The notes under the pieces are model-generated. The model did no database searches, had not been told where the DNA came from, and saw only the letters and a program-made list of their open reading frames with translations. A program made the translations under genes and the position numbers. From the NCBI GenBank assembly GCA_048886185.1, contig JBHLKY010000017.1, forward strand, positions 30,001 through 62,000: a stretch of DNA of 32,000 nt, written 5' to 3'. Shown here piece after piece: positions 4,927-30,005 of this stretch (position 1 is its first letter; every line of letters begins with the position of its first letter). Origin of the DNA: Candidatus Hermodarchaeota archaeon (GTDB lineage: Archaea > Asgardarchaeota > Heimdallarchaeia > Hodarchaeales > Hodarchaeaceae).

Positions 4927-5240
4927 AGAAGGGATTTTCAAAGCCTCTTATACTATTTACACTAGCTGAAATTGGGAGAAGTTATGCTTATCTTCTTACA
5001 AAGAAGATCTTGGAATTCACTAACGGAGAGATCTCTATTGCTGGATCTAATATCTATCCCATGCTTGCAAAACTTGAAGAGGATAAGTTAATCGTCAGTC
5101 AGCTTGATGAGAGCGAACGCAAGTTCTACAAGCTTACTGAAAGCGGAAAGGAATTTCTTAAGCAGTTAGAATTATCTTTGAAAGAATTCAATAAGATGAT
5201 GCTTGATTTGATTATTAAAAGTAAAGGAGATGGAAATTAA
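4884..5240 (+). CDS. padR: PadR-family winged-helix transcriptional regulator (TTG start)
   Basis: KGFSKPLILFTL, SYAYLL, GSNIYPMLAKLEEDKLI, RKFYKLTESGKEFL are typical PadR motifs. An in-frame TAG at 4881 makes TTG 4884 the earliest possible start. Confidence 0.9.
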   Translation: MSNDLLLQKWQTEYKKGFSKPLILFTLAEIGRSYAYLLTKKILEFTNGEISIAGSNIYPMLAKLEEDKLIVSQLDESERKFYKLTESGKEFLKQLELSLKEFNKMMLDLIIKSKGDGN

Positions 5241-5913
5241 AATGTCTGATAAACAAGCATCAGATCCTATTGATGGTTATGTGGCAGAAGTCAGTGGTTT
5301 CCTCCCCTATCCAGAAGTGAAAAAAGTTCCTGTTTTGGAGGAATTGAAAAAAGATGTACAGGACGCCATGGGATCTGAGAAACGTCCACCATCGTTTGTT
5401 TTTGGCTCTCCGACTGAAGTAGCAAAGAATCTAAGTATTGCTCATGATTGGGAGACTAAACCAGCTGGATGGGGAGTACGAGGTTTTGCTTCGTTCATCG
5501 ATTTTGCAGTAACAGGAGGTATCTTTGTTATTTTCGCTATTATCCAGCTTATCCTGTCAGATTTCCAAATCGATGAAATAGAATGGTATTCAATGCACAT
5601 TCCATTTGGTTTTCTTTTTCTGGGCATTCCACTAGTTGGATTTATGTTGAGCTATTTCATTGTATGTGAAAAAACCTACTCGACTACTCTTGGAAAATGG
5701 CTATTAGGACTAATAGTAGTTGATGAATCAGGAATTAAAATCACTTGGACTCAATCACTAATCCGTAACTTTACAAAAGTTCCATTCCTTACTTCTTTTT
5801 TACCATTTGATATCATATTCGGTATAATTTCAGAAAAAACAAGGGGAAGAAAACAAAGGGTGTTAGATTTTGTGGCAGGAACCAAAGTCATGCAAAAAAT
5901 AAATAATGATTAA
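5230..5913 (+). CDS. HAAS-like helical domain fused to RDD-family membrane domain
   Basis: N-terminus YVAEV...VLEELKKDV...FGSPTEVAKNL (HAAS/DUF1700-like). Then AGWGVRGFASFID, TLGKWLLGLIVV, SLIRN, RVLDFVAGTKV (RDD). Overlaps the padR stop. Confidence 0.8.
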   Translation: MEIKMSDKQASDPIDGYVAEVSGFLPYPEVKKVPVLEELKKDVQDAMGSEKRPPSFVFGSPTEVAKNLSIAHDWETKPAGWGVRGFASFIDFAVTGGIFVIFAIIQLILSDFQIDEIEWYSMHIPFGFLFLGIPLVGFMLSYFIVCEKTYSTTLGKWLLGLIVVDESGIKITWTQSLIRNFTKVPFLTSFLPFDIIFGIISEKTRGRKQRVLDFVAGTKVMQKINND

Positions 5914-5925
5914 TAAGGTGTTTTT

Positions 5926-8900
5926 ATGGGATTAAAAGCTAGTCTAAAGATTGCAAAGCGAGCATTGATTCGTAGAAAGACAAAAAACCTAAGTGCGATT
6001 CTTGCGATAACGTTAGGGGTTACTCTAATGGTAGGAATCCAAATTACAACGGATACATTAGAAAAATCGTTTCTCACAAGTCTTCTTGTGAGAGAAGGGG
6101 AAATTGATCTTCGGGTAACAAATGCCACAGGAAGTTATTTAGCTGCTGCAGATGAGGAAAACATTTCTGCTTTAGTAGAAGATGAGCTTGGAATTATGGC
6201 CGAGCTAAAAACACGAACACCTGTAATACTTGGTTCTCAGTTTGAACCTTCAGCTGAACTGGCAGGAATCCCTATCGATTATCCTGAAGCATTTGGTACT
6301 TTTTATGACTGGAAATCAGGAGAAGAATTAGAAATAGAAGATTATCTAATTGATAATACAAGTGTTTTGCTGTCAAGTAAACTAGCAAAGAATCTGGGGG
6401 TAAACAAAGACAATTATTCTTTACCTTTATCCCTAACAACAGAATTTACCAATATTACTCTTCTTCTATATCTCAATGCAAGCTTTCAACCCGTTATAGA
6501 GACAAATATTGTTAATGAAAGATTAAACCTGACTATCACTAATATTTTTGATTCCAATCGTCCTGGAATAGGCGCGCAGTATCGAGGTATTTTATTTAGC
6601 TTGCACCATTTACAGGAATGGATTAGTTTACAAGCATCTCCTCTACTTATTGATCAAATACTCTATCGAAAATACAATCGCACGACTGATTTTATTGGTT
6701 CCTATGTCATTACACTTCAAACTGATCATTTTAGTAATCCAATTGATAGGGATTACCTAGAAGATCATTTTAATGCTCTAGAAGAAGCAGTTCCTGAAAT
6801 ATTAATAGATGATGAACTGGTAAAAATCTATGCTATAGAATCCGCCCGCCTACAATATATTGTACTTATCGATCTTATCTTTAATATGATGTCAGCCTTT
6901 CTAAACGTACTAGGACTTCTTATCATAATAACAGGTGTTCTTTTGATAACAAATGTGCAATTAATGTCTGTGGAAGATCGAGAGTTCCAAACAGGAGTAA
7001 TGAGAGCAGTTGGAGCGAAAAGGCAAGGTATTTTTACTTCTATGTTGTTTGAAACGATATTTCAAGGAGTTTTTGGAGGAATTTTTGGTTTAATTGGTGG
7101 ATTGATCTTTGGGCAATTAGTGGCTTTATACTTAGTAAGTCTTTTTGGTACGGGAAGTGCTAGTGTGCAGCCCGTCGTGAAAGAGAGTGTTGTGATACTT
7201 TCTGTTATTATAGGTGTTACTTTGGGTATAATTACAGGTTTACTTCCAGCCCTACGAGCTTCACGTGTAAATATTGTGGAAGCATTAAGAGGGATAAAGA
7301 TAGTTTTACAAGAGAAATCTAGTCGTAACTTGGCTATACTAGGTGTTATTCTAAGTCTTGCTGGATGTATCTTTCTCTTAAATAATGGTTTCTTTAATGA
7401 TGATCTACAGTATATCTGGAAAACAACTGGTTGGGATAGCATTAAAGAATGGGAAAACATTCTTCTTGGGGCTGGATTCCTATTTTCTGGTCTTGGAATT
7501 ATTTTATCTCGATATATAAGTCGTTCTAAAGCTTTCAACTTAAGTGCCATCATTCTTTGGGCAACACCAGTTTTTATGTTTGTTGTCGCAATGGGTGAGG
7601 GTTGGATTTCTGACATGTCAGGAGAGGCACTAGACATTCTTATTATCAGCATTGTTGAAATAGTGATCGGATCTGTGTTAATTGTTGGAATGAACCTAGC
7701 ACCCTTAATGCGTTTTCTTAGAGGTAGCCTGATTAAAATCAGTGGACTGAAAGGAGTTGCACAGGTCGCCCCTGCCCTTATCTCATCCCACAAAACACGT
7801 TCGACACTTACTTTTGCTATCTTCGCAGTGGTCTTAACGCTGAATGTAACTGTTGCTTCTTTGGTAGCTACTAATATTGACAGCACTATAGGCCAAGCTG
7901 AAGAAGATTCCCGTGGGATTGATTTATTCGTTACTCTAGAACCTAGACCTGAGCCAATTTTAGAAAATACATCATACACAAAGGAATTATATTCATTAGA
8001 TCCTAGCATAACTGATGTTATTGGCGTTAAAACATTCACACCTTCTATATTTGACGAATCGAAAAATGTTAGATTGGAAGATCCAACGAATAATACTCTA
8101 GCTGATAAAGTCCCTATCGGATATGTTGAACTACGACCTGATCAAATTCGGGGAGATGCCTTGGATGCCTCTCATGATAATTGGCGATATGACTTTTATC
8201 TTAGTGCTTTTCCTGATGATATTCGGCCACCAGGGATGATATCATCAGGTATGGGTTTTTCAGGCTTGGATATGAGTGATGAAGAGCTATTGAACCTTTC
8301 TAAGAATGCTTGGGATGCTTTCTTTAATCCGTCCTATAGGATGACGGCCTATAATATTAGCTTCAATTTGGAGAGTTTATCTAATCTAGATATTAGTGAA
8401 TTGTCTGAACTTTTCTCGCAAGATCTAGATGAAGTGGAAAAACTAGTGGATGAAAATGGAGCTCTCATTAAAAACCCCATAGTATTCACAGATTCATTCA
8501 TCCTACCACTTGGTATGCAAATTTGGGTTCCAATGAATAATTCGAATGGAATAGTATATCAACCATTTACTATCGGTGGTAGATTTGATAGTGAGCGCGC
8601 AGGAGGTTTTCCTCTATCTGTTTCTGGTTTTGCTGGCGGAGGATTTACAGGTGGGGATTTTAGAAATACTTTAGGAAATATTTATCTTCCCGAGCATTAT
8701 GCTAAGCTTACTAGTTTTCTGGGAGAAGCAGACGGCGTAACACCAACATCAAGGTCTCCTAATCAGTTCGATAAATATCTTATAAAAACAAGTTATGCTA
8801 TTGATGATCCAGTAGTTGAAGATCTCGCTAGGAGCATCGAAGAATTTACTAACACCAAAGATAAAGGATATCGGCAGATAATTGGGGACAACTTCATAAT

Positions 8901-9345
8901 CGCGACGGCAACACCCTTATATTCCAAGCTGAAGTCTGAATTGGAAATAATGGAACAGATGACTAATTTCCTTCAGATTTATGTGAACTTTGGATTAATA
9001 ATCGGAGCTGTTGGGATGGCTGTGATTTCTGTTAGAAACGTTGCGGAAAGAAAACGAGAGATTGGTATGATGAGAGCTATAGGATTTCCTCGCACACAGG
9101 TAATGTTAGCAGCTCTTTTGGAACTATTAGTCCTCGGTATTATTGGTTTGGCGATTGGAGTAGTTAATGGATTGTTTATCAATGTCGGATTCGCAAACAT
9201 GTTAAATGTTCCTGTTGTTATCCCTTGGGGAACAATAGGGGCATATCTATCCCTCATTACATTTATTGGTTTACTTGCAGGAGCAGTACCAGGATGGGTC
9301 GCGTCGAGAATCCCCGCAGCAGAAGCTTTGAGATATGTAGGTTAA
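5926..9345 (+). CDS. ABC transporter permease with two FtsX/MacB-like modules and large extracytoplasmic domains
   Basis: Two copies of the FtsX signature (DREFQTGVMRAVGA; ERKREIGMMRAIGF), each preceded by a large soluble domain. C-terminal RIPAAEALRY. Confidence 0.9.
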   Translation: MGLKASLKIAKRALIRRKTKNLSAILAITLGVTLMVGIQITTDTLEKSFLTSLLVREGEIDLRVTNATGSYLAAADEENISALVEDELGIMAELKTRTPVILGSQFEPSAELAGIPIDYPEAFGTFYDWKSGEELEIEDYLIDNTSVLLSSKLAKNLGVNKDNYSLPLSLTTEFTNITLLLYLNASFQPVIETNIVNERLNLTITNIFDSNRPGIGAQYRGILFSLHHLQEWISLQASPLLIDQILYRKYNRTTDFIGSYVITLQTDHFSNPIDRDYLEDHFNALEEAVPEILIDDELVKIYAIESARLQYIVLIDLIFNMMSAFLNVLGLLIIITGVLLITNVQLMSVEDREFQTGVMRAVGAKRQGIFTSMLFETIFQGVFGGIFGLIGGLIFGQLVALYLVSLFGTGSASVQPVVKESVVILSVIIGVTLGIITGLLPALRASRVNIVEALRGIKIVLQEKSSRNLAILGVILSLAGCIFLLNNGFFNDDLQYIWKTTGWDSIKEWENILLGAGFLFSGLGIILSRYISRSKAFNLSAIILWATPVFMFVVAMGEGWISDMSGEALDILIISIVEIVIGSVLIVGMNLAPLMRFLRGSLIKISGLKGVAQVAPALISSHKTRSTLTFAIFAVVLTLNVTVASLVATNIDSTIGQAEEDSRGIDLFVTLEPRPEPILENTSYTKELYSLDPSITDVIGVKTFTPSIFDESKNVRLEDPTNNTLADKVPIGYVELRPDQIRGDALDASHDNWRYDFYLSAFPDDIRPPGMISSGMGFSGLDMSDEELLNLSKNAWDAFFNPSYRMTAYNISFNLESLSNLDISELSELFSQDLDEVEKLVDENGALIKNPIVFTDSFILPLGMQIWVPMNNSNGIVYQPFTIGGRFDSERAGGFPLSVSGFAGGGFTGGDFRNTLGNIYLPEHYAKLTSFLGEADGVTPTSRSPNQFDKYLIKTSYAIDDPVVEDLARSIEEFTNTKDKGYRQIIGDNFIIATATPLYSKLKSELEIMEQMTNFLQIYVNFGLIIGAVGMAVISVRNVAERKREIGMMRAIGFPRTQVMLAALLELLVLGIIGLAIGVVNGLFINVGFANMLNVPVVIPWGTIGAYLSLITFIGLLAGAVPGWVASRIPAAEALRYVG

Positions 9346-9359
9346 TTTGGAGGAATTAA

Positions 9360-10121
9360 ATGTCACACGGAGAAGTAATGATTGTTGATGGAATTAAATT
9401 CCAAATTTATGATGAATCACAACCCATTCTTAAAATAAAGGGTCTACACAAAAAATACAATGAAGGAAAGTCAAATGAAGTTCACGCACTTAGAGGTATC
9501 GATCTTGAAGTGAAAAGAGGAGATATGATGGCTATTATGGGCCCTTCTGGGTGTGGGAAGACCACATTATTGAATATGATTGGACATCTTGACACAAACT
9601 CTGGTGGAGAAATCATTATCAATAATATTAATACTAATAAACTCTCTGACGCAAAGATGACAGCATTTCGAAGAGATAATATTGGCTTCATTTTTCAGCT
9701 CTTTAATTTATTCCCATTCCTTACAGCGGTTGAGAATGTTGAAACCCCATTATTATTAAAAGGAATAAATTCAGCTATTGCAAGAGAGCAAGCGAAGATG
9801 CTCTTACGAGATCTTGGAATGGGTGACCGCTTATATCATGACCCCCTAGAGCTCTCAGGTGGACAACAACAACGCGTTGCAGTTGCTAGAGCTTTGATTA
9901 ATGAACCAGCCATAATCTTGGGAGATGAACCCACAGGTGACCTCGATTCAACTACTAGCGGAGAAGTGATGGCCCTGTTTCGACGAATAAATAGAATTAA
10001 TAACCAAACATTCGTTCTTGTCACACATAACCGATTTATCGCAGAAAAATGTGACTATATCATCCATATGATTGATGGTAAGATATCAAGTGTAGAATAC
10101 GGCCCTTTTATGGAGGAATAA
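9360..10121 (+). CDS. ABC ATP-binding protein, LolD/MacB-like
   Basis: Walker A GPSGCGKT, Q-loop FIFQLFNL, signature LSGGQQQR, Walker [13 protein letters not shown]-loop VTHN. Confidence 0.95.
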   Translation: MSHGEVMIVDGIKFQIYDESQPILKIKGLHKKYNEGKSNEVHALRGIDLEVKRGDMMAIMGPSGCGKTTLLNMIGHLDTNSGGEIIINNINTNKLSDAKMTAFRRDNIGFIFQLFNLFPFLTAVENVETPLLLKGINSAIAREQAKMLLRDLGMGDRLYHDPLELSGGQQQRVAVARALINEPAIILGDEPTGDLDSTTSGEVMALFRRINRINNQTFVLVTHNRFIAEKCDYIIHMIDGKISSVEYGPFMEE

Positions 10122-10124
10122 TCC

Positions 10125-11951
10125 TTGAAAGTTTACACAGCTGCTTTAATAGATAAACCTTTGAGATCTATCAATAGAGATCTAAGTAAAAAAGTTACCT
10201 CGGATATTAAAAAGGCCTTAAATGTCAAGGGAAGTGCCATAACAAGTCAAGAATTAAATACTTTTCTTTTTACTTCAGGAGAAACGAAAAATGGCACTCT
10301 TGATATTGGTGATCTGATTGAAAGGATCGAAAAAGGATCTGTTTATAATCGATTTGTTAAATATAACAAAGAAAATGAAACCCGTTTCAAACAGCTTCTG
10401 AATAATAATCAAGAATTACATGAAACTTCTCAAATTGTCAAGGATTTCATTAAAGAAATTAATCCGGGCTTGCCCAAAAAACTGGAAAAAGAGTTAGGAA
10501 AAATTAAAACTGAATTACCAAGGATTTTTTGTGAACTCAGTACAAGAAGCTTTATTACTCTCTGGGATCTTAATGAAACTCAGGATTATAGGTTTTATTT
10601 ATCTGGATTTGATTTTCCTGTTTTTACTGGCAAAATGGATATTTCCATGAATATAGGAGATATAGTTGATCAGATTTTAATAGTCAATTTTTTCATGACA
10701 TTCTTGAAACCAACAATTCAGCGTTTAGACAAGATGTATTCAATTCTTCACCAACTCGAACAGGAAATCTTGAAACAACATTATAGAACTAACAACCATA
10801 AACTTCAGTCCAAATTCGAACTTTTCCTGCGAATTTTAGTTGCTAAGTTGAGTGCATTACAAGAGTTGGATAATCTAATCTATCGAATTTTGAATCTGTT
10901 TGACATTCCATTTATGTCCTTAACACAATACAACTTAAAAAGTGACTTTCTTGATTTCAACACAGAAATTACCAGAATATCAGAGGAGATCCAAGCTGGA
11001 AAGTCAAAACTTCATGAGGTTAGTGAGTTCATTCAACGGTGCCAATTATGTATTCGAGATTACCTTGATGAAGGAATAAATGGAGTAAAAACAGCGGAAT
11101 CCATTGAGGAATTTAAAAGCGCATTAACACCTGTGGGTGAATTAAGTGTAGATCTATTTGTAGAAGCTGAGATACTTAAAATTTGGTCAGATTACTTTGG
11201 TTCTGATCTACCATATTTTAGCTTTAATTCTCAATTACTTCATTCAACTGAAACTGAAGCAGAAGAAATTGACAGAGATGTAATACTTGCAGTAAGAGGC
11301 TTATATAAAAATTATAATTTAGGACGTAATACAGTTTATGCAATCAGAGGAGTGAATCTTGATATAAAGGAAGGGGAATTCGTTGCTATTGTTGGTAGTT
11401 CAGGAGCAGGAAAAACAACATTGTTAAACTGCATGGCAAGCTTAGATTCCCCTGATCATGGAGCTGTGTATTTCCGTGGCAAAAATCTTCACCGAATGAA
11501 AGATTCTGAAAAATCTGAATTAAGATTAAAAGAAATGGGATTTATTTTCCAGAGTTATGCTTTATTACCACATTTCAATACCCGAGAGAATGTTACTTTA
11601 CCAGCAGACTTAGTTGGGGGATTAAGTAAAGGAATTAAGCGACGAATAGAAGATCTTCTCAAAGGAGTTGGTATTGATCAGCAAGCGAAACAATTTCCAG
11701 CACAATTAAGTGGAGGACAGATGCAACGTGTAGCAATCGCTCGCGCTCTCACTAATCGTCCTACAGTGATTTTCGCTGATGAACCAACAGGTGACCTTGA
11801 TAGTATGACTGGCACTCAGGTTATGGAATTACTGAAGAAGTTCCATGAAGAAACAAAAACAACGATCATAATAATTACTCACGAACAAGATATAGCAGCT
11901 TATGCCCAGAGGCAAGTCTTGATGGAAGATGGAATAATTTCACGTCATTAA
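10125..11951 (+). CDS. LolD-like ABC ATPase with a ~385-aa N-terminal soluble helical extension (TTG start)
   Basis: The C-terminal ~220 aa from ~11280 has [36 protein letters not shown]. The N-terminal part has no TM segments and no motif I recognise. Confidence 0.85.
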
Positions 11952-12193: not shown

Positions 12194-13186
12194 GTGAAAG
12201 GAGAATATCGCTTGAATAACCCGGATTATTTGACACGAATTCATTTGAAAGGTGCCGTACCCATAATCTTTGAGAATCTTTTCAAACATTGCCCTACTAG
12301 AGAACTTTCTGGGGATTTTTTTGCATCTATTGGTTTCAATAAACCAGGAAAAGAGTTAAACATTCAAGGTAAAAAAGTTCAAGTACTTCTAATTAATTGT
12401 CAAAAATGTAATTGCCAAGATGATTATTCTGATTCAACAGTAGTATTTGTGAAACTAAATGACAGAGGGAGCTTCAAGAAACTCAATAGCTATTTTAATT
12501 TAACTCAAAAGGTCAATGACAATTATAGACATCAAAGAACTATTATTGGATTGTTAGAGGAACCAGTGCAAGTTTCTCAAGCTGAAAGAGATGAATTAAG
12601 CACTAATAGAAACATAGAATATCATGAAATATCAGTCAATGAAATTGAAGACCTTGAGAAAATTCTTATTGATATAATAGAAAAGAGTCTTCTTCTTCCA
12701 CAGTATTTATTAAAAATAGCTTGCTTAGGTTCGGAAAAAAAGACTTCAATCATTCACAATTATGTCAAAGATAATTTAACTGCTGATTATTTACCAACAT
12801 TAGGAGTTGATATTACTAATAAAAGATTAAATGTCCATGGAGTAAGAGTTGATCTAATCATTGTTGATACAGCAGAGCAAAAAGACTTTGGAAAATTAAG
12901 ACCAAATTACTATCGAGGGGCCAATGGTGGTCTGATTTTCTTTGATTTTGAAAGAGAAAAAAGTTTTAACGCTATCAGGGGGTGGATCAATGAATTTTCT
13001 ACTTATATCAAAGATCCTATTCCCATCGCTTTAATTGGTATTGAGGGAGAAAGACAAAGAGTTCCTGTAAATGAAGCCAAGGCCTTAGCACAAGAATATA
13101 ACATGGAATTTTATAAAATACAAAAGAACAAACCTAAATTAAATGAAATAGCCAAAAAAATAACTGAAATAATTCTGACCAATTAA
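12194..13186 (+). CDS. Rab-like small-GTPase-fold protein, two tandem degenerate G domains (GTG start)
   Basis: C-terminal domain (~12704-13183): KIACLG, YLPTLGVD, DTAEQ, YYRGA, FFDFEREKSF..IRGW. The N-terminal domain aligns by eye to the same fold (SIGF..KELNIQGKKVQVLLIN; VVFVKLNDRGSFKKL; QVS..E..EL...NIEYHEIS). Confidence 0.8.
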   Translation: MKGEYRLNNPDYLTRIHLKGAVPIIFENLFKHCPTRELSGDFFASIGFNKPGKELNIQGKKVQVLLINCQKCNCQDDYSDSTVVFVKLNDRGSFKKLNSYFNLTQKVNDNYRHQRTIIGLLEEPVQVSQAERDELSTNRNIEYHEISVNEIEDLEKILIDIIEKSLLLPQYLLKIACLGSEKKTSIIHNYVKDNLTADYLPTLGVDITNKRLNVHGVRVDLIIVDTAEQKDFGKLRPNYYRGANGGLIFFDFEREKSFNAIRGWINEFSTYIKDPIPIALIGIEGERQRVPVNEAKALAQEYNMEFYKIQKNKPKLNEIAKKITEIILTN

Positions 13187-13257: not shown

Positions 13258-14361
13258 TTGATGGATAAAGTTCTGTTAAATAATAAAGGGGTCTCACTCC
13301 CATTTAGCGATATACTTCTGATATCATCGTATGCTTTATTTTATCCATTATTTTTGGGATTAATATTCATTGTTACAAGTTTCTTCATTGATGATGTCAT
13401 CCCATTTTACATCATTTTACTTATAGTATCTCTTATTTTATTGGTAATTATTGGCATATTCTTTTATAAATCTTATAAAGAACTTCGATTATATGCTACT
13501 GAAGTATCTTACGTTCAGTTTCAACCATCATGGCGAGATTTAGTCATCCAGATGATTTTTCAAATTTATTATATTATATTTCTTGGTTTAATACTTGCTG
13601 CATTCTTGGGATCAAGTATGACTGAATTTTTGCCTCAGTGGATGATTTTAAGTGCAGCACTGATAATTTCATTAGGATATCAAGGGATCCTAGTCTTTCT
13701 ATCAATGAACTCAAAAAGAAAATTATTAGCTACAGCTCAGCAACCTGTCAAACCTGAAATTGTCGAAAATGTAAAACAATTTCCCAATAGTCATTTGATA
13801 AGTATTTTTCGGTTTGCAGATATTCAGCTTGCCTCTCTATTCCTATCAGCTGGTGTTATGACTCTCGGATGGAAAAATATCTGTTTAATCTCTCAGTATT
13901 TCAATTGGAAACTAACAGATGAGGAGCTCATTGCTGTATTAGGTCATGAAGAAGGACATTTGGCAAGATATCATATAAGAACTGCTTATCTTATCATTGG
14001 AACAGAGGGATTCCTTCGTACTTTAAGGATTTTTTGTATTATTACAGGATTATTACTTGTTTTGAATAATTTACCTCTAATCGCGTTAAACTCAAGTTCT
14101 TCATTGATTTTTCTCTTTCTATTTGTTTTTATCTTTCTTACATCATCATGTTTAACAATAATTCAGCGTTACCGAGTTTATTTACAGGAAATTCGTGCTG
14201 ACAACTATGGAGGAAATCTAGTAGGTTATGAATTATTAGCTAATACGTTGAAAAAACTACCTACTCTGATTCCTGCACCTATTGGAACCCAGCAAATGGA
14301 TTTTTTAGGATTCCGAATTGCTCTCCTCCGTGAACAAGCTAAACATCTAAAACAAAATTAA
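13258..14361 (+). CDS. M48-family (HtpX/Ste24-like) membrane zinc metalloprotease (likely ATG 13261)
   Basis: LTDEELIAVLGHEEGH (HExxH), downstream QEIRADNYG (ExxAD), multiple TM helices. Confidence 0.85.
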   Translation: MMDKVLLNNKGVSLPFSDILLISSYALFYPLFLGLIFIVTSFFIDDVIPFYIILLIVSLILLVIIGIFFYKSYKELRLYATEVSYVQFQPSWRDLVIQMIFQIYYIIFLGLILAAFLGSSMTEFLPQWMILSAALIISLGYQGILVFLSMNSKRKLLATAQQPVKPEIVENVKQFPNSHLISIFRFADIQLASLFLSAGVMTLGWKNICLISQYFNWKLTDEELIAVLGHEEGHLARYHIRTAYLIIGTEGFLRTLRIFCIITGLLLVLNNLPLIALNSSSSLIFLFLFVFIFLTSSCLTIIQRYRVYLQEIRADNYGGNLVGYELLANTLKKLPTLIPAPIGTQQMDFLGFRIALLREQAKHLKQN

Positions 14362-29240: not shown

Positions 29241-30005
29241 TTAATTGAGTTCATTGAGTAATAAGGAATAATTAATTTTATCTATGATTTTCCAGATTGA
29301 GCTACTTTGTATAAGTAAAAGGAAACTAAAGACAGGTAATAAAAAAAATTGAGAAAAAAAAGCTAAGTTGTACAAATCGCTTGAAATAAGGATGCTAATA
29401 AACCAAATTAAGTCCCCGAATTGATAAACTAAGAATACAATTAATATAATCATTAAATGGGTTAATAGAGCCCGTTCAGCCTTTCGATCTATAAATTTTT
29501 CGCGTACCTTGCGTAATCGGATCAGAAGAACAATAATCATTGCGTCAACAAGAAATCCAAGCATAATGAGCCCAAAGAATGATAGTTCTTCCATAAGCTC
29601 AACATCATTATTATTAAAGAGGGAGGCTATTAACCACCCTAAAAACAATGCAGGAATGATTGGAATATATTTCTCAATTAAGAAAAGACGATTCGAGGAA
29701 AGATTAACATATGTGAAGGAAAATTCTAGTATTGTCAGTAACATGAAAAAGATTATTACTATTAACAAATATGGGATTTTCATCATTCCAAGATCCTGAA
29801 TTGTACTGAACATGGTTTCAGGGAAGAACAATACGAAAAGTCCTGTTACCATTATTGTGGTTGCAAAAAGAAATAATGTTAAGGTCATATGAAGAAATAT
29901 CTCATCACGAGCTTTTCTGAATAGAGGAAAAGTGAGGATTGCAGACAGGAATAGAAAAAAAGAGCTTATTAAAGCACCTAATCCCGCAATAATGATGAAT
30001 GACAT
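29241..30005 (-). CDS. Hypothetical ~7-TM membrane protein
   Basis: About seven hydrophobic segments by inspection; no soluble output domain. Confidence 0.7.
   Translation of the reverse strand: MSFIIIAGLGALISSFFLFLSAILTFPLFRKARDEIFLHMTLTLFLFATTIMVTGLFVLFFPETMFSTIQDLGMMKIPYLLIVIIFFMLLTILEFSFTYVNLSSNRLFLIEKYIPIIPALFLGWLIASLFNNNDVELMEELSFFGLIMLGFLVDAMIIVLLIRLRKVREKFIDRKAERALLTHLMIILIVFLVYQFGDLIWFISILISSDLYNLAFFSQFFLLPVFSFLLLIQSSSIWKIIDKINYSLLLNELN

Follow-up and report, generated by a model that had tools for sequence, protein, structure and literature searches.

A stand-alone tandem of two degenerate Rab-like folds in a Hodarchaeales archaeon, a candidate nucleotide-independent adaptor

We analysed a 32,000-nucleotide stretch of DNA (the window; positions 30,001 to 62,000 of contig JBHLKY010000017.1, G000:C17:30001-62000 in our coordinates) from the 4.8 Mb, 96% complete genome of a Candidatus Hermodarchaeota archaeon placed in the order Hodarchaeales, which is among the closest archaeal relatives of eukaryotes. 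Related contigs, and the names under which relatives of the protein are deposited, agree with a position in Hodarchaeales/Hodarchaeota, part of the Heimdall group of Asgard archaea (Promethearchaeota). The window holds a 330-aa open reading frame (ORF) at 12194..13186 on the + strand, in its longest form beginning with GTG at 12194, which an earlier note made from the sequence alone had taken for a tandem of two Rab-like pseudoGTPase domains. From sequence comparisons and predicted structures, we lean towards interpreting its product as a stand-alone protein of ~324 residues in which two fused Rab-like folds serve as a nucleotide-independent adaptor or regulator trap. The protein derives from a Hodarchaeales Rab-like subfamily marked by the motifs YLPTLGVD and KLRPSYYRGA. 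Residue numbers throughout are those of the 330-aa ORF (P0001), and its main parts are as follows.

12212..13186, + strand: tandem Rab-like protein, coding sequence with stop, 324 aa counted from TTG 12212; start placed by comparison with orthologues
12212..12694, + strand: N-terminal degenerate G domain, residues 7-167 of the ORF, from profiles, the AlphaFold 2 (AF2) model, Foldseek, and VIA
12695..13183, + strand: C-terminal Rab-like G domain, residues 168-330, from Pfam Ras, PDB sequence matches, and superposition of the AlphaFold model

The C half is readily recognised as a Rab-like domain. It matches Pfam Ras (PF00071) at expect (E) values of 1e-28 to 1e-32, well above the curated cut-off of 21.6 bits (100.4 bits for the C half alone and 113.1 for the whole protein), and its best relatives of solved structure by sequence are Rab3B, Rab21, and Sec4 (~1e-20). 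In the full-length AlphaFold model, which has a predicted local distance difference test (pLDDT) score of 82.3 and a predicted template modelling (pTM) score of 0.78, the C half matches Ypt32, Rab23, Rab3C, and Sec4 at Z 20-21 in VIA over ~160 residues, the root-mean-square deviation (rmsd) being 2.4-3.0; the match to Ypt32 reaches Z 20.9 over 164 aligned residues (rmsd 2.6). Foldseek of the same model returned C-half matches at E 1e-11. The nearest intact paralogue, G000:C6:207313-207849 (L106:314-847), shares the fold, the YLPTLGVD and KLRPSYYRGA motifs, and the absence of a prenylation cysteine, but it is a single domain with all of its G boxes in place. Set against it, the nucleotide-binding motifs of the C half are broken.

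12728..12748, + strand: P-loop remnant GSEKKTS, residues 179-185, from alignment to Rab3B and to GSGSVGKTS of the intact paralogue
12788..12811, + strand: switch I / RabF1-like YLPTLGVD, residues 199-206, conserved across the family
12866..12922, + strand: G3 DTAEQ (residues 225-229) followed by switch II FGKLRPNYYRGA (residues 232-243), with a strongly conserved switch II surface
13040..13051, + strand: IEGE at the NKxD (G4) position, residues 283-286, unconserved among orthologues
13112..13126, + strand: YKIQK at the ETSAK (G5) position, residues 307-311, unconserved among orthologues

G1: GSGSVGKTS in the intact paralogue, GSEKKTS in the C half
G3: DTAGQ in the intact paralogue, DTAEQ in the C half
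G4: NKKD in the intact paralogue, IEGE in the C half
G5: TSAK in the intact paralogue, IQK in the C half

The remnant GSEKKTS is two residues shorter than GxxxxGK[ST] and has lost the glycine before the lysine while keeping Lys-Thr. Across the 11 full-length family members, the P-loop has six residues, or seven in two members, where eight are canonical, the DxxG glycine position holds glutamate here and glutamate, glycine, or serine in orthologues, and the G4 and G5 positions are unconserved. The variation at G4 and G5 and in P-loop length implies that there is no conserved base pocket. The same 11 members are invariant at G179, K183, T184, Y199, L200, G204, V205, and D206, and further at D225, T226, F232, L235, R236, Y240, and G242, with T202 (the G2 threonine) and A227 nearly invariant. 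This set comprises the G1 Lys-Thr, the switch I/RabF1 strand, the G3 Asp-Thr, and the whole switch II face. The RabF-type motifs LGVDI and YYRGA are likewise conserved in the C half and are lacking in the N half.

These comparisons bear directly on the earlier note. The ORF and every motif string quoted in it occur in the translation, and the changes it had listed for the C half (GSEKKTS, DTAEQ, IEGE, and the missing SAK) could each be located there and in the alignments. Its remark that Rab-type surface motifs survive in this half agrees with the conservation of YLPTLGVD and YYRGA across the family. The headline claim that both folds lack their nucleotide-binding motifs holds for the N half and is overstated for the C half, in which P-loop length and glycine, NKxD, and SAK are gone while the residues that contact magnesium and phosphate are kept (K183-T184 and D225-T226 invariant, T202 and A227 nearly so).

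Recognition of the N half as a G fold depends on profiles and on predicted structure. Strand beta1 reads RIHLKG, and the G1 position has KGAVPIIF, without a P-loop lysine or threonine; NCQKC stands at the DxxGQ position, LLEE at NKxD, and SVN at SAK, and the switch II helix is deleted. The columns L38, G40, F42, G52, and K53 are invariant or nearly so, and the best-conserved segment is the following.

12293..12352, + strand: P-x-R-E-L-S-G-x-F...G-F-x-K-P-G-K, at the switch I / beta2 position

A hidden Markov model (HMM) built solely from the N halves of seven orthologues matched the protein's own C half (independent E-value 2.7e-7, positions 10-161) and, over their full length, dozens of single-domain Asgard Rab-like proteins at E 1e-15 to 1e-4. 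The reverse search with a C-half HMM recovered the N half (independent E-value 5.5e-7), and hhalign of the two profiles gave 95.6% probability and E 1.3e-8 over 133 columns. In a search of PDB sequences, all matches of the N profile were Rabs (Rab35 at 2.5e-5, a Ypt7-like Rab at 2.8e-5, and Sec4 at 4.9e-5). Against 1.84 billion representative proteins it gave 50 matches at E <= 1e-3, consisting of family members, fragments, two spurious repeat proteins, and ~35 further matches, eight of which were scanned with Pfam and all eight assigned to the Ras family. The repeat proteins, Branchiostoma giant proteins P0045 and P0051, match a 38-residue stretch of the profile repeatedly and were set aside as spurious.

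The separate AF2 model of the N half (pLDDT 84.5, pTM 0.83) has the order b1-a1-b2-b3-b4-a3-b5-a4-b6-a5, without the switch II helix. Foldseek placed it with Rab1b, Rab11, and Rab8 (E 1e-7, template modelling scores of 0.5-0.63) at 14-16% identity to Rabs, and VIA-align gave Z 11-12.3 for Rab, Ras, and Gem structures, with Gem, Ypt32, and NRAS at 11.9-12.3; lower matches include CENP-M (Z 9.7), pG1 of p190RhoGAP-B (Z 9.4), and EhRabX3 (Z 9.1). The by-eye pairing of the two halves in the earlier note, which used the strings SIGFNKPGKELNIQGKKVQVLLIN, VVFVKLNDRGSFKKL, and VQVSQAERDELSTNRNIEYHEIS (all present in the translation), was reproduced by MAFFT, which pairs RIHLKG with KICAIG, SIGF with TLGVD, NCQKC with DTAGQ, LLEE with NKKD, and SVN with SAK, and by hhalign. 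Its view of the N half as the same fold with every G box lost is borne out by the profiles and the predicted structure, and the separate fold searches and structure predictions that it had proposed give a Ras-superfamily G fold for both halves. On these sequence and model comparisons, we take the N half to be a Ras-superfamily G fold homologous to the C half.

At the former G3 position the N half also carries a cysteine cluster, C-Q-K-C-N-C (residues 69-74, window 12398-12415). Only the closer orthologues share cysteines 69 and 74, as DC....C, and model confidence is low at this place.

Neither half carries the G1, G3, G4, and G5 motifs of a functional small GTPase, the G3 glycine being found in some orthologues only. 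By predicted fold and by loss of motifs, the protein would be a class i pseudoGTPase, although the C half may not be a clean example because it retains the residues that contact magnesium and phosphate.

The tandem arrangement is maintained in a family. Its 11 full-length members are 322-335 aa long (apart from one longer gene call) and 33-61% identical, and a library clustered at 50% identity contains seven family clusters at E <= 1e-30. The named members come from Hodarchaeales or Promethearchaeota metagenome-assembled genomes, where they are annotated as 'Rab family GTPase' or as hypothetical. In every pair of orthologues, the proportion of nonsynonymous differences (pN) is 0.18-0.45 in both halves, far below the saturated proportion of synonymous differences (pS, 0.5-0.9); given this saturation the comparison is limited to pN << pS and does not amount to a proper dN/dS. 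Both halves are under purifying selection. The earlier note had held that a lack of intact orthologues would mark the gene as a decaying pseudogene; intact orthologues under purifying selection do exist. A word-indexed search, which is a weak basis for negatives, found neither stand-alone N-half proteins nor longer proteins carrying the N half.

Taken together, we propose the following model. From the loss of motifs, neither half is expected to bind guanine nucleotide in the canonical manner, and without such binding the protein would not be a switch but a constitutive binding module. Its likely contact surface would be the C-half face made up of switch I, interswitch, and switch II, which is near-identical to that of the intact paralogue G000:C6:207313-207849, and through which the C half may engage the same kind of partners as working Rab-like GTPases. 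The invariant surface is the one through which Rabs meet guanine nucleotide exchange factors (GEFs) and effectors, and it hardly differs from that of the paralogue; the simplest model is therefore that the protein competes for, or anchors, the same partners. The scaffold or effector-decoy role suggested by the earlier note would be a reasonable reading. Between the possible partners, we favour a stable anchor or trap for GEF-like regulators over an effector decoy, since a GTPase with an empty pocket binds exchange factors most tightly. Replacement of the glycine before the P-loop lysine, as in Ras G15A and RhoA G17A, yields nucleotide-free proteins that trap GEFs. The N half may serve as a further platform, keep the empty C half stable, or do both, and the pTM of 0.78 for the full-length model suggests that the two halves form a fixed two-domain unit.

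Several points weigh against an adaptor or regulator trap. The orientation of the domains comes from one AlphaFold model built on 10 sequences, no conserved gene neighbour or partner was found among the orthologue loci, and no RNA run is among the sequencing runs listed with the identical sequence. In addition, the invariant K183-T184 and D225-T226 and the near-invariant T202 are the magnesium and phosphate ligands of working GTPases, so that residual or atypical ligand binding is possible.

This last point leads to the only alternative to which we give appreciable weight, which we nevertheless consider rather unlikely: the C half may be an atypical ligand-binding domain that holds either a nucleotide, regardless of its base, or a ligand that bears phosphate, by means of the Lys-Thr, the switch I threonine, and the G3 aspartate, with the dead N half as its intramolecular regulatory partner, as in EhRabX3 with its unequal G domains. 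The retention of K183, T184, D225, and T226 without exception, and of T202 and A227 with few, in 11 members at 33-61% identity is what such a domain would be expected to show, as is the glutamine Q229, which is mostly retained, some orthologues having the full DTAGQ. Some small GTPases without G4 and G5 (IFT22, PDB 6ia7) still bind GTP, and 6ia7 is itself listed among the structural matches of the N-half and full-length models. However, a P-loop of six or seven residues rather than eight, with no fixed length and with the glycine before the lysine replaced, fits poorly with ligand binding, as does the lack of conservation at G4 and G5, and the lysine or the threonine is freely lost in sister degenerate lineages.

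Two further explanations appear very improbable. If the gene were a decaying or mis-assembled Rab gene without function, this would agree with its non-ATG start codon, with its faster evolution (the tandem protein is 62% identical to that of L074, against 82.6% for the neighbouring ABC ATPase gene), and with a narrow and patchy family, 3 of the other 23 genomes in the order having clear matches (E <= 1e-28). Full-length frames are nonetheless open in 11 members down to 33% identity, pN lies far below pS in both halves, and the identical sequence occurs on five contigs and in four sediment runs of one study (possibly the source samples). True Ras pseudogenes of the same genome, moreover, carry stop codons: the Ras matches G000:C17:21728-22234 (one TAA) and G000:C12:149229-149744 (one TAG and two TAA) are likely Rab-like pseudogenes of this kind. 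We give no more credence to the N half being an unrelated alpha/beta three-layer fold, CheY- or flavodoxin-like, that resembles a G domain by chance. Scanned alone, the N half scores 17.3 bits (E 0.0037) against Pfam Ras, below the 21.6 cut-off, and its identity to Rabs is only 14-16%, both as a chance resemblance would have it; yet sequence profiles reach Rabs over the full domain length without any use of structure, and all top structural matches belong to the Ras superfamily.

Among the closest described parallels to the proposed adaptor is the pG1-pG2 pair of p190RhoGAP, tandem class i pseudoGTPase domains with proposed scaffolding or regulatory roles (Stiegler & Boggon 2017, PMC5593906). 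Both consist of two consecutive Ras-like folds with degraded G motifs, and the N-half model reaches Z 9.4 against pG1 of p190RhoGAP-B. The p190 domains, however, are parts of a large RhoGAP of metazoans, which has a working GTPase domain at its N terminus as well, whereas the protein studied here consists of its two dead folds and nothing else. Its origin is a Rab-like archaeal paralogue, common descent with p190 is not implied, and its C half differs from the p190 domains in retaining Lys-Thr, Thr, and Asp-Thr. A second parallel, EhRabX3 from Entamoeba histolytica (Chandra et al. 2014, as cited in PMC5593906), resembles the protein in being of Rab type with two G domains in one chain, one of which lacks several G motifs; its structure 5c1s matches the N-half model at Z 9.1. 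EhRabX3 is reported to be an active hydrolase (PMC8514894), unlike the protein studied here, which has no intact P-loop in either domain and, judged by its motifs, probably no domain that binds and hydrolyses nucleotide. CENP-M (7pkn_M, Z 9.7 to the N half) is likewise a G fold that lacks nucleotide-binding motifs and serves as a scaffold, but it is a single-domain eukaryotic kinetochore component of an unrelated lineage. When the full-length model was searched against 48,161 PDB representatives, no rigid tandem-GTPase match was present among the best 50, nor was 5c1s; the only two-domain match among these 50 was to Miro1, with an rmsd of 21.

The genome contains 63 Pfam Ras matches. Among 47 ORFs with a Rab-like domain, 10 lack GxxxxGK[ST]: besides the tandem protein these are a truncated fragment and eight further ORFs that are intact, and several of these Walker A-less ORFs have orthologues in other Hodarchaeales. 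Other ORFs of ~300 aa with Ras matches in this genome were considered as tandem G domains and rejected, being Arf-plus-extension or Rag/Gtr1 proteins. The search for the same two-domain architecture in Asgard proteomes that the earlier note had suggested returned, beside the 11 members, at least two further tandem degenerate families in Hodarchaeales. One comprises P0010, P0011, L019:5728-6810, and L051:5764-6888, and the other P0059 and P0077 (Ca. Hodarchaeum mangrovi), which are ~322 aa long and have two Ras-fold halves without G boxes; the best match of this latter family in the studied genome is the tandem protein, with which P0077 is colinear across the domain linker. These families resemble the one studied here in length (~320-375 aa) and in their two halves of Ras fold, both of which lack a canonical GxxxxGK[ST], and differ from it in the type of N domain and in that their C halves fall in other tree clades.

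Some related proteins have other layouts. The Heimdall-group protein L051:5764-6888 (375 aa) carries a C-terminal zinc ribbon after its two degenerate Ras-fold halves, and alongside it stands a 589-aa Hodarchaeota protein (L045:4039-5805) in which the Ras fold occurs three times, each time lacking a canonical Walker A. P0054 and P0060, weak matches to the N-half profile, are Rab-Rab tandems whose G boxes are largely intact and which carry KLQIWDT(A/S)G motifs of the eukaryote type.

A quick maximum-likelihood tree gathers the C halves of the family into one clade (support 99), inside a mostly degenerate group of the YLPTLGVD/LRPSYYRG type. The N halves group as a clade by themselves, whose stem is 2.45 changes per site long and lies among other long branches; their placement is unreliable, and the N half may have originated by internal duplication or by fusion with a neighbouring paralogue, which this tree does not distinguish. 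Gene fusion is a plausible origin of the tandem because adjacent Rab-like gene pairs are common. Examples of such head-to-tail pairs are L037:5938-6501 and 6505-7044, which lie 4 nt apart, and, in the studied genome, C16:21263-22553, C5:135168-136356, and C16:33438-34530.

PseudoGTPases are an emerging class of eukaryotic signalling scaffolds. We found the dead-switch design, which stands alone here, described only for eukaryotes, and there inside larger proteins; a stand-alone protein of only two dead Rab-like folds in an archaeon was not found in the literature searched. The search revealed no paper on archaeal pseudoGTPases and none joining pseudoGTPases with Asgard archaea: by their titles and abstracts, the results for pseudoGTPases and archaea were general reviews of pseudoenzymes or pseudokinases, and nothing relevant was found on tandem GTPases in Asgard archaea. 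Asgard Rab-like GTPases have been described (Tran et al. 2024, PMC10933270), in a paper from which the words 'tandem', 'pseudo', and 'degenerate' are absent. The public 'Rab family GTPase' labels on this family mean that counts of Rab-like proteins include some that probably cannot switch, and such counts serve arguments for the membrane-trafficking capacity of Asgard archaea.

As a conjecture that we hold to be doubtful, Hodarchaeales may carry a maintained radiation of Rab-derived pseudoGTPases (eight other Walker A-less Rab-like ORFs among the 47, and at least three tandem families) that act as natural nucleotide-free Rab mimics, holding or titrating GEF-like regulators of the longin, roadblock, and TRAPP types. 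If this were true, pseudoenzyme control of small-GTPase networks, thought to be a eukaryotic elaboration, would predate eukaryotes. And if the dead copies bind the regulators of live copies, they would offer a small, soluble, nucleotide-independent bait for the GEFs, GTPase-activating proteins, and effectors of Asgard Rab-like GTPases.

The ends of the gene were placed by comparison with orthologues. The true start is probably TTG 12212, six codons downstream of GTG 12194, because in L074 and L002 a stop codon immediately precedes the homologous position, L004 has an ATG exactly there, most orthologues begin at this column with M-T/S-x-P-D, and a GGAG lies 8 nt upstream.

12200..12203, + strand: GGAG, read directly, 8 nt before TTG 12212 and presumed to act as a Shine-Dalgarno-like element

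The same GGAG (AGGA in L004) stands at this place before the homologous start in L074, L002, L003, and L004. At the other end, the translation closes with ...EIILTN and thus, as the earlier note had observed, has no C-terminal cysteine for prenylation. The orthologues and the intact paralogue also lack one, and since this is true of the intact paralogue, the missing cysteine is normal for the lineage.

The surroundings of the gene differ among orthologues. The upstream ABC ATPase gene is common only to the close relatives L074 and L002, and the neighbours of distant orthologues are unrelated (a TPR protein, ADH, DUF3795, and an aminotransferase); guilt by association offers no lead here. In the window, positions 5230-11951 hold a series of + strand genes for an RDD-family protein, an FtsX-type permease of 1139 aa, and two ABC ATPases. 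The second ATPase (10125-11951, 608 aa, 82.6% identical in L074) has a ~400-residue N-terminal extension without a Pfam match. Directly downstream, positions 13258-14361 encode a multi-pass membrane protein that carries an HEEGH motif and matches Peptidase_M48 weakly (E 1e-9); this gene does not adjoin the orthologues and is unconserved there. Elsewhere, the proteins encoded at L019:8331-10097 and L079:6620-8452 have leucine-rich repeats followed by a Ras/Roc-like domain without Walker A, a ROCO-like layout in which the G domain is degenerate.

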